Made by a program: the position numbers and the translations under genes. A stretch of 64,000 bases of DNA from Escherichia coli (GTDB lineage Bacteria > Pseudomonadota > Gammaproteobacteria > Enterobacterales > Enterobacteriaceae). Below are positions 5,085 through 58,458 of the stretch, piece by piece. Where the stretch lies: the NCBI RefSeq assembly GCF_046105845.1, contig NZ_CP151004.1; one strand, written 5' to 3'. Below the pieces are notes generated by a model. It had not been told where the DNA came from. It made no database searches and saw only the letters and a program-made list of their open reading frames with translations. Position 1 is the first letter of the stretch. The number at the start of each line of letters is the position of its first letter.

Positions 5085-6629
5085 TTACCCCTGTTGCTGC
5101 GTCGGTTGTTCACTCTGCATCGCGCTCGGCCCCAGACGGGCATATTTCTGCATCAGGTAGACTTCGGCGATTAAGAACAGGGTGTAAAGCCCTACGATCA
5201 TGATCAGTGAGAAAGCCAGTTGTCCTGTGGTTAAGGCGGAGTGCGCGGAGTATGTCGGTAAGATGTCCTGTATCGCCCACGGCTGACGACCAAACTCGGT
5301 CATAAACCACCCGGCTTCAATCGCAATCCACGGCAGCGGCAAACTCCAGAGCGCCATTTTCAGCACCCAGCGATGCTGGTCGATTTTGCCACGCAGCGTC
5401 TGGACAAGCGCAATAAGCATCACCAGTAGCAGCAGAGAACCACAGCCCACCATGATGCGGAAACTCCAGAATACCGGCGCAACCTGAGGTATCGCACCAC
5501 GCATCGCCGCCTGGTACTGTGCAGCTGTGACATGGTTCATATCCGGCGCATAGCGGGAGAGCAACATGCCGTAACCAAGGTCGCCTTCCAGCTCCCGGAA
5601 TGCCTGCAACACATGCGGCTCTCGATTGCCTTGCGATATTTCCTGCATTAACAGCCAGGCCATACGTCCGCGTTGCAAGCGTGGGTAGGTTTCAGCCATC
5701 AAATTCTTCAGACCCGGCACGGGTTTATCTAATGAGTGAGTGGCGAGGATCCCTAGCAGCGCGGGAATTTTGATGGCAAAGGCGTTACGCTCTTGATCCT
5801 GTTCCGGCCAGGCAACCACATGGAACGGTGCAGGTGCAGGTTCCGTTTGCCACTCCCCTTCCATCGCCGCCAGTTTTACCGGTTGTACTTGCGCGACTTC
5901 ATACGCCGAACTGTCTCCGAGTTGCAGCGTACCGATAATCGCCAGAGTACCGAAGACGGAACCGATGGCAAACGAGCGTAATGCAACATCGCGCTCCCGT
6001 CCGCGCAGTAAATACCAGGCGCTGATCGCCATAATAAACATGGCCCCGGTCACGTAGCCCGCCATTACGGTGTGTACAAATTTCACCTGGCTGACCGGGT
6101 TAAAGACCAGCTCGCTGAAGCTGGTCATTTCCATGCGCAGGGTGTCGATATCAAAATGCGCACCGGTCGGGTATTGCATCCAACCGTTGGCATTCAATAT
6201 CCACAACGCAGAGAGATTTGAACCGAACGCCACCAGCCACGTCACCAGCAGGTGCTGGTATTTATTCAGCCGCTGCCAGCCGAAGAAGAACAGCCCGACA
6301 AAGGTGGATTCGAGGAAGAAGGCCATTAATGCTTCCATCGCCAGCGGTGCGCCAAAAATATCGCCCACATAGTTGGAATAGAATGACCAGTTAGTACCAA
6401 ACTGAAACTCCATGGTCAGGCCGGTAGCCACGCCAAGAGCAAAGTTGATACCGAAGAGCTTACCCCAGAAGCGCGTCATATCGCGGTAGATTGTTTTGCC
6501 GGTGACCACGTAAATGGTTTCCATGATAGCCAGCAAAAAAATCAGCCCCAGGGTAAGGGGTACAAATAAAAAGTGATACAGCGCGGTCAGAGCAAACTGC
6601 CAGCGCGATAAATCAATGACATCCCACAT
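5085..6629 (-). CDS. appC: Cytochrome bd-II ubiquinol oxidase subunit I
   Basis: ORF trimmed to [12 protein letters not shown] (514 aa); CydA-family; recognised as AppC/CbdA. Confidence 0.93.
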
Positions 6630-8015: not shown

Positions 8016-8599
8016 CTCTGCTCCTCCAGCGTCATCCGGTACTGGCGCAAGCGAACGCCTTCGTAATTTTCCATCGACAGACAGTCATAATTGAGACAGC
8101 GCGATTCATTAGCCGGTTGCGGCACAATTCCCCACGCAGCCAGCTGCGCCAGCGCCGCCTGTTCCGCGACGGGCAGTTGCTCCCGCGCCAGTTCGCTCAG
8201 GCTGCCGCCGTAGTCGTCGAGCATCGCGGGTTGCAGACCGACGAGGGCAATATGTGCTGGCAGATGTCCGCGGATATCTGCCAGCGCCAGCACTTCGGAG
8301 AAGCTGTTCTGGTGCAGACTCATTTTCTTCGCGCTGAGATAAGCCGGAATGCGTTCTCCGGCATATGTTCGCAGCGTTCCGGGTTCCAGCCCGTAATCAA
8401 TGGCATCGAGGATCAACAAGTGACTGGCGCTTTCGACATACCCCAGCAAGTTCAGTCCCTGAGTACCGCCATCGACAATCTCGACTTCATCGGGCCAGTG
8501 GTAATGGGCATACAACCGTTCCGCCACCCGCACGCCGAAGCCTTCATCGGCCCACAGCAGGTTGCCCAGCCCCATTACCACCACGCGTTGCTCGCTCAT
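8012..8599 (-). CDS. hyaD: Hydrogenase-1 maturation endopeptidase HyaD
   Basis: 195-aa [25 protein letters not shown], HybD/HycI protease family. Confidence 0.95.
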
Positions 8600-38589: not shown

Positions 38590-39600
38590 TCAGATATTGC
38601 TAACGATTTCTTTAATCAAAGGCGGACCTTTAAAAATAAAACCAGAATAAATTTGCACCAGTGAGGCCCCCGCAGCAATCTTTTCACGCGCAGCGATAAC
38701 CGAGTCAATGCCGCCAACACCGATGATCGGTAAGCGACCGTTTAATTCCTGTGACAAGCGGCGAATAATTTCTGTGCTTTTTAACTGAAGCGGACGACCA
38801 CTTAAGCCACCGGTTTGATCACAATTTTTCATTCCCTGAACCAGAGAACGATCGAGCGTGGTATTGGTTGCAATAACGCCATCAATATTATGGCGAACTA
38901 AACTATCGGCAACCTGGATCAATTCTTCTTCAGAAAGATCCGGCGCGATCTTCACTGCGATCGGCACATATTTATGGTGCATCGCTTGCAAATCATTTTG
39001 CTTATTTTTAATCGCGGTTAAGAGATCATCCAGCGCTTCGCCATATTGCAGAGTACGTAATCCCGGTGTATTCGGCGATGAAATATTGATGGCGATATAT
39101 CCCGCATAAGCATAGATTTTTTCCATACAAATCAGATAGTCATCTTTACCCTGCTCCACCGGCGTATCTTTATTTTTGCCGATGTTAATACCCAGGACGC
39201 CATCATAATGGGCTTTTTTTACGTTCTCTACGAGGTTATCAACGCCAAGATTATTAAAGCCCATACGGTTGATCAAACCTTCGGCATCTACCAGACGAAA
39301 GAGACGCGGCTTGTCATTACCTGGCTGTGGACGTGGCGTGACGGTACCGATCTCGATCGATCCAAATCCCATCGCGCCTAACGCGTCAATGCACTCCCCG
39401 TCTTTATCAAGACCGGCTGCCAGACCAAGCGGATTTTTAAACGTCAGGCCCATGCAGTTAACAGGTTTCGCAGGCACTTTCTGCCGCACCAGTGCTTCAA
39501 ACGGCGTTCCTGTAATACGGCGTAATTGCTGAAAAGTAAACTCATGAGCGCGCTCTGGATCGAGCTGGAAAAGGGCTTTACGAACGAAGGGGTAGTACAT
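38590..39600 (-). CDS. pyrD: Dihydroorotate dehydrogenase (quinone)
   Basis: ORF trimmed to [20 protein letters not shown] (336 aa). Confidence 0.95.
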
Positions 39601-39710
39601 GAACTCTCCTGGATTCCCGGTGTGCAAACCGGGGGCGTATTATGTGCGAGTTCGGACCAAAAGGGAATTGACCTGTGGCAAAAAAAGCGCAAACGTTTTC
39701 CGAGCCTGTT

Positions 39711-55381: not shown

Positions 55382-56782
55382 ATGAGCGTTGTGCCTGTAG
55401 CCGACGTACTCCAGGGCCGCGTAGCCGTTGACAGCGAAGTCACCGTGCGCGGATGGGTACGTACCCGCCGAGATTCAAAAGCTGGCATCTCCTTCCTCGC
55501 CGTTTATGACGGTTCCTGCTTTGATCCTGTACAGGCTGTCATCAATAATTCTCTGCCCAATTACAATGAAGACGTCCTGCGTCTGACCACCGGTTGCTCG
55601 GTCATTGTGACGGGTAAAGTCGTGGCATCGCCGGGCCAGGGGCAACAATTTGAAATTCAGGCCAGCAAGGTTGAAGTTGCTGGTTGGGTTGAAGATCCAG
55701 ACACTTACCCGATGGCGGCAAAACGCCACAGCATTGAGTATCTGCGTGAAGTCGCTCACCTGCGTCCGCGCACAAACCTGATTGGTGCCGTCGCGCGCGT
55801 TCGCCATACGCTGGCGCAGGCGCTGCATCGCTTCTTTAACGAGCAGGGATTCTTCTGGGTTTCAACGCCACTGATTACTGCGTCTGATACCGAAGGGGCT
55901 GGCGAAATGTTCCGCGTTTCTACGCTGGATCTGGAAAACCTGCCGCGTAACGATCAGGGCAAAGTGGATTTCGACAAAGACTTCTTTGGTAAAGAGTCTT
56001 TCCTGACCGTATCTGGCCAGTTGAACGGCGAAACCTACGCTTGCGCATTGTCCAAAATTTATACCTTCGGCCCGACTTTCCGTGCTGAAAACTCCAACAC
56101 CAGCCGTCACCTGGCGGAATTCTGGATGCTGGAGCCGGAAGTGGCGTTTGCTAACCTGAACGATATCGCGGGTCTGGCTGAAGCCATGCTGAAATATGTC
56201 TTCAAAGCGGTTCTCGAAGAACGCGCTGACGACATGAAATTCTTCGCTGAACGCGTAGATAAAGATGCCGTTTCACGTCTGGAACGCTTCATTGAAGCCG
56301 ATTTTGCGCAGGTGGATTACACCGACGCAGTGACCATTCTCGAAAACTGCGGCAGGAAGTTTGAAAACCCGGTTTACTGGGGCGTTGATCTCTCTTCTGA
56401 GCATGAGCGTTATCTGGCGGAAGAACACTTTAAAGCACCGGTAGTGGTTAAAAACTATCCGAAAGATATTAAAGCGTTCTATATGCGCCTTAACGAAGAC
56501 GGTAAAACCGTTGCGGCTATGGACGTTCTGGCTCCGGGCATCGGTGAGATCATTGGTGGCTCCCAGCGTGAAGAGCGTCTGGACGTGCTGGACGAGCGTA
56601 TGCTGGAAATGGGCCTGAACAAAGAAGATTACTGGTGGTATCGCGATCTGCGTCGCTACGGTACTGTTCCGCATTCCGGTTTCGGTCTTGGTTTTGAACG
56701 CCTGATTGCTTACGTAACTGGCGTGCAAAACGTGCGTGATGTGATTCCGTTCCCACGTACTCCGCGTAACGCCAGCTTCTAA
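55382..56782 (+). CDS. asnS: Asparagine--tRNA ligase
   Basis: ORF trimmed to [20 protein letters not shown] (466 aa); class II aaRS. Confidence 0.97.
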
Positions 56783-56796
56783 TTTAGCGTCTTCAA

Positions 56797-56824
56797 GAGC
56801 CAGCGCCCGCTGGCTCTTTTTTTA
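56797..56824 (+). terminator. Rho-independent terminator of asnS
   Basis: GAGCCAGC-gccc-GCTGGCTC followed by TTTTTTT. Confidence 0.75.
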
Positions 56825-57173
56825 TCCTTTCTGTCAAGTTATCTGTTTGTTAAGTCAAGCAATCTATTTGCAACCCCACCATAACGATCATCCTGTTACG
56901 GAATATTACACTGCAACATTTGCGCACAAAAAATAATCCGCATTCTTATTGCGGATTAGTTTTTTCTTAGCTGATAGCACAATTTTCATACTGTTTTTTG
57001 GCGTTCTGGATGTCTGAACGAGGATTTAGTGCCAGGTCGATAAAGTTTCCATCAGAAACAAAATTTCCGTTTAGTTAATTTAAATATAAGGAAATCATAT
57101 AAATAGATAAATATTGCTGTAAATATCATCACGCTTCTATGGAAATATGACGGTGTTCACAAAGTTCCTTAAA

Positions 57174-57240
57174 TTTTACTTTTTGTTACATATTTTTTCT
57201 TTTTGAAACCAAATCTTTATCTTTGTAGCACTTTCACGGT
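57174..57240 (+). promoter_or_regulatory. ompF promoter-proximal OmpR-binding region (F1-F3 boxes)
   Basis: TTTACTTTTTTGTTACATATTTTTTCTTTTTGAAACCAAATCTTTATCTTTGTAGCACTTTCACGG matches the ompF upstream OmpR box array as recalled; within a 600-bp AT-rich intergenic region. Confidence 0.7.
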
Positions 57241-57384
57241 AGCGAAACGTTAGTTTGAATGGAAAGATGCCTGCAGACACATAAAGACACCAAACTCTCA
57301 TCAATAGTTCCGTAAATTTTTATTGACAGAACTTATTGACGGCAGTGGCAGGTGTCATAAAAAAAACCATGAGGGTAATAAATA

Positions 57385-58458
57385 ATGATGAAGCGCAATA
57401 TTCTGGCAGTGATCGTCCCTGCTCTGTTAGTAGCAGGTACTGCAAACGCTGCAGAAATCTATAACAAAGATGGCAACAAAGTAGATCTGTACGGTAAAGC
57501 TGTCGGTCTGCATTATTTTTCTAAAGACAATGGTGTAAACAGTTACGGCGGAAACGGCGACAAAACTTATGCCCGTCTTGGTTTTAAAGGGGAAACACAA
57601 ATCAATTCCGATCTGACCGGCTACGGTCAGTGGGAATATAACTTCCAGGGTAACAACTCTGAAGGCGCTGATGCCCAGAAAGGTAACAAAACTCGTCTGG
57701 CATTCGCAGGTCTGAAATTCGCTGATGCGGGTTCTATCGACTACGGTCGTAACTACGGTGTGGTTTACGACGCACTGGGTTACACCGATATGCTGCCTGA
57801 GTTTGGCGGTGACACGGCATACAGCGATGACTTCTTCGTTGGTCGTGTAGGCGGCGTTGCTACCTATCGTAACTCCAACTTCTTCGGTCTGGTTGACGGC
57901 CTGAACTTTGCCGTTCAGTACTTGGGCAAAAACGAACGTGCTGGTATTCCTGAGCGTTCCAACGGCGACGGCGTCGGTGGCTCTATCAGCTACGAATTCG
58001 AAGGCTTTGGTATCGTAGGTGCTTACGGTGCAGCAGACCGTACCGACGCCCAGGAAGCCGAATTCCGCGGTCAGGGTAAAAAAGCTGAACAGTGGGCAAC
58101 TGGTCTGAAGTATGACGCGAACAACATCTACCTGGCAGCGAACTACGGTGAAACCCGTAACGCTACGCCAATTGAAGGCGGCTTCGCCAACAAAACGCAA
58201 GACGTTCTGTTAGTTGCGCAATACCAGTTCGATTTCGGTCTGCGTCCGTCCATCGCTTACACCAAATCTAAAGCGAAAGACGTAGAAGGTATCGGTGATG
58301 TTGATCTGGTGAATTACTTTGAAGTGGGCGCAACCTACTACTTCAACAAAAACATGTCCACCTATGTTGACTACATCATCAACCAGATCGATTCTGACAA
58401 CAAACTGGGCGTAGGTTCTGACGACACCGTTGCTGTGGGTATCGTTTACCAGTTCTAA
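57385..58458 (+). CDS. ompF: Outer membrane porin OmpF (divergent loop allele)
   Basis: [22 protein letters not shown] signal peptide, C-terminal VGIVYQF; 357 aa versus 362 aa recalled for K-12. Confidence 0.95.

Follow-up and report, generated by a model that had tools for sequence, protein, structure and literature searches.

The 602 bp that separate asnS from ompF in the Escherichia coli contig NZ_CP151004.1 are best read as the cis-regulatory region of ompF, which lies behind the asnS terminator and contains no separate functional gene; we assign this reading a probability of roughly three in four. The region was analysed within a stretch of 64,000 nucleotides, referred to below as the window, and all positions are those of the window unless another genome is named (Table 1). 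It is an already known and ordinary region, among the best-studied bacterial promoters, and its only unannotated transcript was reported in 2002 and 2011.

Table 1. Positions of the features discussed in the text
Feature	Position	Strand	Description and basis
asnS-ompF intergenic gap	56783-57384	asnS and ompF both +	602 bp
asnS intrinsic terminator T1	56795-56825	+	stem 56795-56818, then T7
Two tandem repeats	56829-56873		TTCTGTCAAGTTATCTGTTTGTTA / TTAAGTCAAGCAATCTATTTGCAA, 21-bp spacing; weak resemblance to the F1 region
Putative distal OmpR site F4 (approximate)	56894-56917	+	TGTTAC-GGAATATTAC-ACTGCAAC; distance given in the literature
Hairpin 2, terminator-like inverted repeat	56928-56964	reads the same on both	beside F4
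Hairpin 2, core stem	56934-56942 / 56950-56958		7-nt loop; 5′ A-run, 3′ T-run
Moderately conserved block	56973-56985		ATAGCACAATTTT
Moderately conserved block	57003-57018		GC..TCyrGAyGkCyAAA
Opposite-strand ORF remnant	57026-57052	-	ATG 57052-57050; 8 codons here, 39 aa in K-12
Ancient conserved A/T block	57080-57106		TTAAATATAAGgAAaTCATATAaATA; -195 to -169 from the TSS; conservation
Sigma-70-like site	57123-57094	-	TTTACA-18-TATGAT; 10/12 match; predicted start near 57087
CRP-like site	57146-57168		TATGA-N6-TCACA plus near-invariant TCACAAAGTTCC; conservation, upstream of F1
OmpR activation sites F1, F2, F3	57175-57194, 57195-57214, 57217-57236	+	PWM and critical bases
ompF -10 hexamer; TSS	57263-57268; 57275	+	AAAGAT; TSS table of Kim et al. 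2012
ompF 5′ leader	57275-57384	+	MicF pairing site 57368-57395

The intergenic gap and the ompF promoter

The gap opens behind the asnS stop codon (56780-56782) and ends before the ompF ATG at 57385; it is flanked 5′ by the gene of asparaginyl-tRNA synthetase (466 aa) and 3′ by that of the OmpF porin (57385-58458, 357 aa), and the RefSeq annotation places no feature beneath it. Its GC content is 34.7%, compared with 51.0% window-wide, and the 600-bp stretch of the window with the lowest GC content is 56814-57413. The sequence-only reading had recognized an AT-rich asnS-ompF gap of about 600 bp and had called it the longest non-coding stretch of the window. Both statements hold: the runners-up measure 426, 356 and 355 bp, a ranking based on the RefSeq annotation of E. 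coli strain 7/2, which is colinear with window positions 2463-63995 at 98.3% identity, and the non-colinear first 2.4 kb are occupied by an ORF of the Wzc/Etk type.

This ORF (726 aa) lies in positions 1-2462, the only stretch of the window where colinearity with strain 7/2 breaks down. It encodes an Etk-like tyrosine kinase of the Wzz/GNVR/Wzc type, which we take to be the group 4 capsule gene located behind appA in K-12; the annotation of strain 7/2 shows no such gene at the matching place. In that strain, the closest genome, ompF (locus L082, 5539-6616) is annotated as a frameshifted pseudogene. The OmpF encoded in the window presumably differs at many positions from that of K-12. Across the whole window, only a PyrD leader and one tRNA (39595-39668, minus strand, and 12656-12740, plus strand) exceed the Rfam gathering score. 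In the E. albertii locus (L002), a match to the sRNA ES036 (CssrF) was found on the minus strand at 8529-8571, more than 1.4 kb downstream of ompF and approximately at the expected far end of aspC.

Of the 5,426 complete E. coli genomes, 5,424 gave a match to the region, for the most part with 95-99% identity (97.2% in K-12 MG1655; window 56700-57400 corresponds to about 986,970-987,670 of K-12 U00096.3). The region is single-copy (median, one place in each genome), and on this ground the idea that hairpin 2 is a copy of a repeated element was rejected. The locus is that of the regulatory region of ompF in E. coli K-12: the sites F1-F3, the transcription start site (TSS), the leader length and the position of F4 agree with the literature, and K-12 differs merely by substitutions at the strain level, such as one base in a flank of hairpin 2 and the stop in the opposite-strand ORF.

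The region was scored with a position weight matrix (PWM) derived from the F1-F3 orthologues in 13 genera, and F1, F2 and F3 gave the three highest scores in it (18.3, 14.1 and 12.6 bits). The critical bases A4C5, A14C15, A34C35 and C53 fall within these sites exactly as published, the placement of the critical AC dinucleotides in OmpR sites being taken from the Delihas paper. The region accordingly shows the organization of the OmpR-controlled ompF promoter class, namely, three tandem 20-bp sites that end near -40 and carry AC at positions 4-5 and 14-15, and the OmpR box array that had been proposed at 57174-57240 is recovered as F1-F3 at 57175-57236. Farther upstream, the core of the CRP-like site agrees by inspection with TGTGA-N6-TCACA at 9 of 10 positions, which makes it a putative CRP site.

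For K-12, the supplement of Kim et al. 2012 lists an ompF 5′ UTR of 110 nt and an upstream sequence ending in ...GGAAAGATGCCTGCA, which together place the TSS at 57275. Term-seq 3′ ends published by Adams et al. 2021 lie on the plus strand at 57317, in the ompF leader 68 nt before the ATG, and at 57397, 12 nt into the ompF ORF. Positions 57369-57387 are invariant in 13 Enterobacteriaceae genera and near-invariant in the remaining Enterobacterales. The predicted duplex of MicF with 57368-57395 has an energy of -27.4 kcal/mol and covers the Shine-Dalgarno sequence and the AUG, in agreement with the earlier description of the ompF leader as a target of MicF. A 15-nt direct repeat, AGTTCC(T/G)TAAATTTT, was also observed, the two copies of which (57163-57177 and 57306-57320; 93% identical and 143 bp apart) are located just before F1 and within the ompF leader, both inside blocks conserved across genera.

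The distal half, F4 and the A/T block

The first element behind asnS, T1, forms 10 pairs (6 GC) with an energy of -17.8 kcal/mol (z -5.7). Each of the 13 genera compared retains this hairpin with conserved GCCAGC/GCTGGC arms, and its energies range from -14.7 to -19.2 kcal/mol in those whose aligned segments can be compared. It is followed by the two tandem repeats (71% identity), which occupy the part of the region with the lowest cross-genus conservation and have low OmpR PWM scores (1.1-2.5 bits). An origin of the distal half as a degenerate copy of the proximal OmpR region, which would make F4 a relic of F1-F3, was rejected: the alignment did not exceed that of shuffles in 10 of 14 sequences, and for E. 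coli, the local alignment of the distal with the proximal part had a z of about -0.6.

The literature describes F4 as a weak OmpR site that lies 260 bp upstream of F1-F2-F3 and closes a loop for repression. The putative F4 of the window consists of half-sites ending in AC (GTTAC, ATTAC and GCAAC) spaced by approximately 10 bp, and its TGTTAC and ATTwC show conservation among the genera of Enterobacteriaceae. The PWM derived from F1-F3 gives no score on 56894-56917, the best distal matches being on the minus strand at 56918-56937 and 57110-57129, and the borders of F4 therefore rest on the literature. We assume that F4 spans -380 to -350 relative to the TSS at 57275, and 56894-56917 fits this interval.

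The gap measures approximately 544-618 bp in 12 Enterobacteriaceae (786 bp in one genus) and 248-306 bp in 10 other Enterobacterales, and F4 is absent from Y. pestis; the distal 250-300 bp are thus an addition specific to Enterobacteriaceae. Across 13 genera, mean column identity ranges from 0.39 to 0.73 in the distal half and from 0.85 to 0.94 from 57155 onward. Among eight diverse E. coli, variable sites amount to 33 of 350 in the distal half, 8 of 66 at asnS third-codon positions and 3 of 150 in the promoter and leader. The variation of the distal half is comparable to that of the third-codon positions of asnS, which indicates evolution close to neutral. Thus, the conservation analysis that had been recommended for this region reveals no behaviour of a conserved gene in its distal half. 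The asnS-ompF intergenic region is also a published SNP marker for host and source tracking of E. coli and for 'naturalized' wastewater strains, and its near-neutral polymorphism may help explain this use.

A few short islands stand out from this background. For the two moderately conserved blocks, known regulatory sites were compared by inspection: in 56973-56985, the first half fits a mar-box half-site and the second does not, and neither a sigma-54 promoter nor a mar-box was accepted in 56973-56985 or 57003-57018, since critical positions misfit or are unconserved.

The top conservation island of the distal half among the 13 genera is the A/T block. Pantoea, Erwinia, Brenneria, Pectobacterium and Acerihabitans possess the block as well, at a fixed distance of 61-62 bp from TTCAC. 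Its position coincides with what we take to be the IHF footprint between F4 and F1-F3, and by inspection, it has two mismatches to the IHF consensus WATCAANNNNTTR. The block is probably a DNA-bending site, presumably for IHF. According to the sequence-only reading, the distal half was featureless except for probable OmpR and IHF sites. The location of F4 fits this description and a conserved block does stand at the presumed IHF footprint, although with the two mismatches mentioned, but T1, hairpin 2 and the A/T block itself are features that the description lacked.

In Pantoea, Erwinia, Brenneria, Pectobacterium and Acerihabitans, the A/T block directly follows the asnS stop codon and the terminator lies between the block and the CRP-like element; in Enterobacteriaceae, the block TTAAATATAAGnAAnTCATATAnATA is located approximately 260 bp 3′ of the orthologous asnS terminator, with the 61-62 bp spacing to the promoter unchanged. 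The order of the A/T block and the asnS terminator is swapped between Enterobacteriaceae and the other Enterobacterales. The constancy of the spacing argues that the block acts on the DNA level in the ompF promoter architecture, not as RNA. In several Erwiniaceae and Pectobacteriaceae (loci L013-L017, L021 and L022, at about 5399-5480), the TTAAATATAAGnAAnTCATATAnATA stretch (cf. window 57080-57143) stands after the asnS stop codon and before the asnS terminator, and the 35-bp spacer found in place of this terminator in Enterobacteriaceae resembles a decayed hairpin in some of them, for example GAGCGATCGCTC followed by ATTTATT in Kluyvera.

Hairpin 2 and the opposite strand

Beside F4 lies a second hairpin, which forms 9 pairs (4 GC), is followed by T6 on both strands and scores as an intrinsic terminator in both directions (-14.0 and -13.7 kcal/mol on the two strands; z -5.6 and -5.1). 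It thus possesses the GC-containing stem, the short loop and the U-run of an intrinsic terminator. With the bidirectional intrinsic terminators treated by Ju et al. 2019, it shares the A-run, the symmetric stem, the T-run and the terminator score on two strands; such terminators are usually situated between convergent genes, whereas hairpin 2 is situated in a regulatory region between co-oriented genes.

An important question is whether hairpin 2 is a selected working element, either a fail-safe terminator for asnS read-through or opposite-strand transcripts or a palindromic protein-binding site next to F4. This possibility overlaps with the cis-regulatory reading, and we regard it as rather unlikely, with a probability of about one in four. 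The canonical order of A-run, stem and T-run on both strands speaks for selection, as do the direct vicinity of F4 and the perfect 15-bp arms of the K-12 hairpin (-20.1 kcal/mol). The insertion of an IS200C element right behind the hairpin in one isolate points in the same direction, as the family of this element inserts beside hairpins. Against selection, the hairpin lacks conservation beyond E. coli: on the plus strand, its energy is only -3.8 kcal/mol in E. albertii, where the minus strand retains -11.0 kcal/mol through G-U pairs, and ranges from 0 to -5.5 kcal/mol in 11 other genera. Among the eight E. coli, 2 of the 18 core stem positions vary without compensation, which is about the neutral rate; O157 keeps the pairing on the minus strand only, and ST131 and RIVM keep it on the plus strand only. 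Hairpin 2 is therefore not maintained in evolution as T1 is, and T1 already provides a strong and universally conserved terminator.

Data on transcript ends bear on the same point. The Term-seq lists of Adams et al. 2021 contain no 3′ end at hairpin 2 (K-12 987,40x-987,44x), which is weak evidence, as these lists also omit the asnS terminator. They do contain a low-intensity 3′ end on the opposite strand at K-12 987,644, corresponding to window position 56723, 60 nt inside asnS, where it follows ...GUUUUGCAC. This end lies past hairpin 2, so termination at the hairpin would be partial at best. The SMRT-Cappable-seq tables contain no entry for the interval.

In the isolate with the insertion (NZ_OZ121091.1, locus L084, from urine, Cambodia), the IS200C transposase gene directly follows hairpin 2, at approximately window position 56968, and ompF is wholly missing; asnS, IS200C and aspC are adjacent, which constitutes a natural porin-loss allele. 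Two resemblances of hairpin 2 to known RNAs were rejected. A minus-strand match to STnc240 over the hairpin stayed at 22 bits (E = 3.1; gathering score, 55), has a counterpart neither in the Citrobacter gap nor in any of 12 related loci and reflects resemblance to the terminator only. A Thr-leader-like attenuator (Rfam E = 2.1), for which a plus-strand ORF of 29 codons starting with TTG and ending at hairpin 2 could be considered, is contradicted by the lack of an ATG, by differences at 5 of 29 amino acids between K-12 and the window and by the absence of the ORF from the protein collection.

The sequence-only reading had seen no convincing promoter-plus-terminator pair in the distal half. Such a pair does exist on the minus strand: the sigma-70-like site and the terminator-like hairpin at 56958-56934 with its T6 tail predict an RNA of approximately 160 nt, from about 57087 to about 56926. 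A transcript on this strand is known from K-12, where Stead et al. 2011 detected candidate 62, opposite to ompF and asnS, on tiling arrays, labelled it a putative small ORF and equated it with C0240 of Tjaden et al. 2002. Strand and interval match, and from this we infer that C0240 is the product of the promoter-like site and hairpin 2.

Could the distal half then encode an Escherichia-specific sRNA (C0240) that diverges from ompF, runs from about 57087 to hairpin 2 over some 160 nt and has a layout like that of micF? We consider this unlikely, and less probable than a selected role for the hairpin. The own promoter and terminator of an sRNA may be represented by the minus-strand sequence pair, whose hairpin carries a U6 tail, together with the reported array transcript, the ends being predicted from sequence. 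Both promoter hexamers are invariant in the eight E. coli and E. albertii while the spacer varies, yet the -35 box is missing in the genera outside Escherichia, and promoter-like sites occur in this AT-rich region at chance frequency (2 found against 2.4 expected in shuffled sequence). An OmpR-PWM match of 8.7 bits overlaps the candidate -35 box. The minus-strand hairpin that E. albertii retains through G-U pairs favours an sRNA, and the K-12 inverted repeat, which is unlikely as pure chance, keeps this explanation alive; the stem variants of ST131 and RIVM, however, disrupt the minus-strand pairing, and the Term-seq lists, with the omission noted above, show no 3′ end at the hairpin.

The body of the candidate RNA also speaks against such a gene. 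Its 5′ two-thirds diverge heavily between E. coli and E. albertii, the region is unconserved in other genera, and as a whole, the RNA folds no better than shuffles (z -1.27). Pairing in trans with the leaders of ompF, ompA and asnS showed no excess over shuffles (z -0.5, +0.3 and +1.8), and Rfam gave no match better than E = 2 in the region and none in 12 related loci. The candidate therefore lacks the conserved sequence or seed, or the curated family, of a trans-acting (Hfq-type) sRNA. With micF and ompC, it shares the divergent layout from a porin promoter and the OmpR-like match near the -35 box, but micF is conserved across enterobacteria, forms an Rfam family and has a defined target, whereas the candidate has neither conservation nor an Rfam match nor detectable pairing.

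That the opposite-strand transcript is instead the mRNA of a small protein, the 39-aa ORF of K-12 (METLSTWHKIFF...), is close to excluded: the putative small ORF label of Stead et al., the frame that stays open over 39 aa in K-12 and over 47 aa in ST131 and E. albertii and the 'hypothetical protein' calls of some GenBank pipelines are outweighed by a stop or frameshift in four of the eight E. coli lineages, the window included (8 codons in the window and strain 98203, frameshifts in O157 and RIVM), by the lack of a Shine-Dalgarno sequence before the ORF, by its absence from RefSeq annotation and from the novel-sORF (Ribo-seq) table of Stringer et al., and by database records that are restricted to E. 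coli 'hypothetical proteins' with unrelated cluster mates. The ORF thus combines neither a preserved open frame among strains nor a ribosome-binding site with its start, and in the present strain, which cuts it to 8 codons, the small-ORF interpretation of C0240 fails. The gap had been singled out as the most plausible place in the window for an unannotated small RNA or small ORF; an opposite-strand transcript has indeed been reported there, but it corresponds to no conserved gene and to no Rfam match.

Proposed architecture of the region

In the cis-regulatory reading, the region is ordered, from 5′ to 3′, as T1, 250-300 bp restricted to Enterobacteriaceae with the weak site F4, the A/T block, the CRP-like site, F1-F3, the promoter and the MicF-paired leader. 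According to the established model, high levels of OmpR-P bridge F4 with F1-F3 and thereby form a loop that represses ompF. The distal half would then be a spacer that holds F4 and F1-F3 approximately 260 bp apart, with a bendable A/T block in between; repression by looping would be the sole need for it, and outside a few short islands, it would drift almost neutrally. Drift of AT-rich sequence in E. coli may have yielded the two-strand terminator-like hairpin and the opposite-strand promoter-like site, which plausibly give rise to the low-level opposite-strand transcript C0240, part of which would read on into the 3′ end of asnS. The most that hairpin 2 would do is to insulate asnS from the ompF control region; the opposite-strand RNA would be a by-product.

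Several observations do not sit easily with a purely cis-regulatory region. The opposite-strand transcript was detected experimentally, and an opposite-strand 3′ end lies in asnS; the hexamers are invariant across Escherichia while their spacer varies; E. albertii pairs on the minus strand only (-11.0 versus -3.8 kcal/mol); the perfect 15-bp inverted repeat of K-12 is unlikely by chance alone; and the moderately conserved distal blocks 56973-56985 and 57003-57018 fall outside the elements of this reading.

The outcome is negative in that the longest non-coding stretch of the window hides no conserved sRNA or small protein. In the improbable event that E. coli and its closest relatives do possess here a recently evolved sRNA of approximately 160 nt, with a promoter overlapping the OmpR-like site and the A/T block, its expression would be tied to the regulation of porins in the manner of micF/ompC, and its read-through would act as antisense RNA on the 3′ end of asnS.
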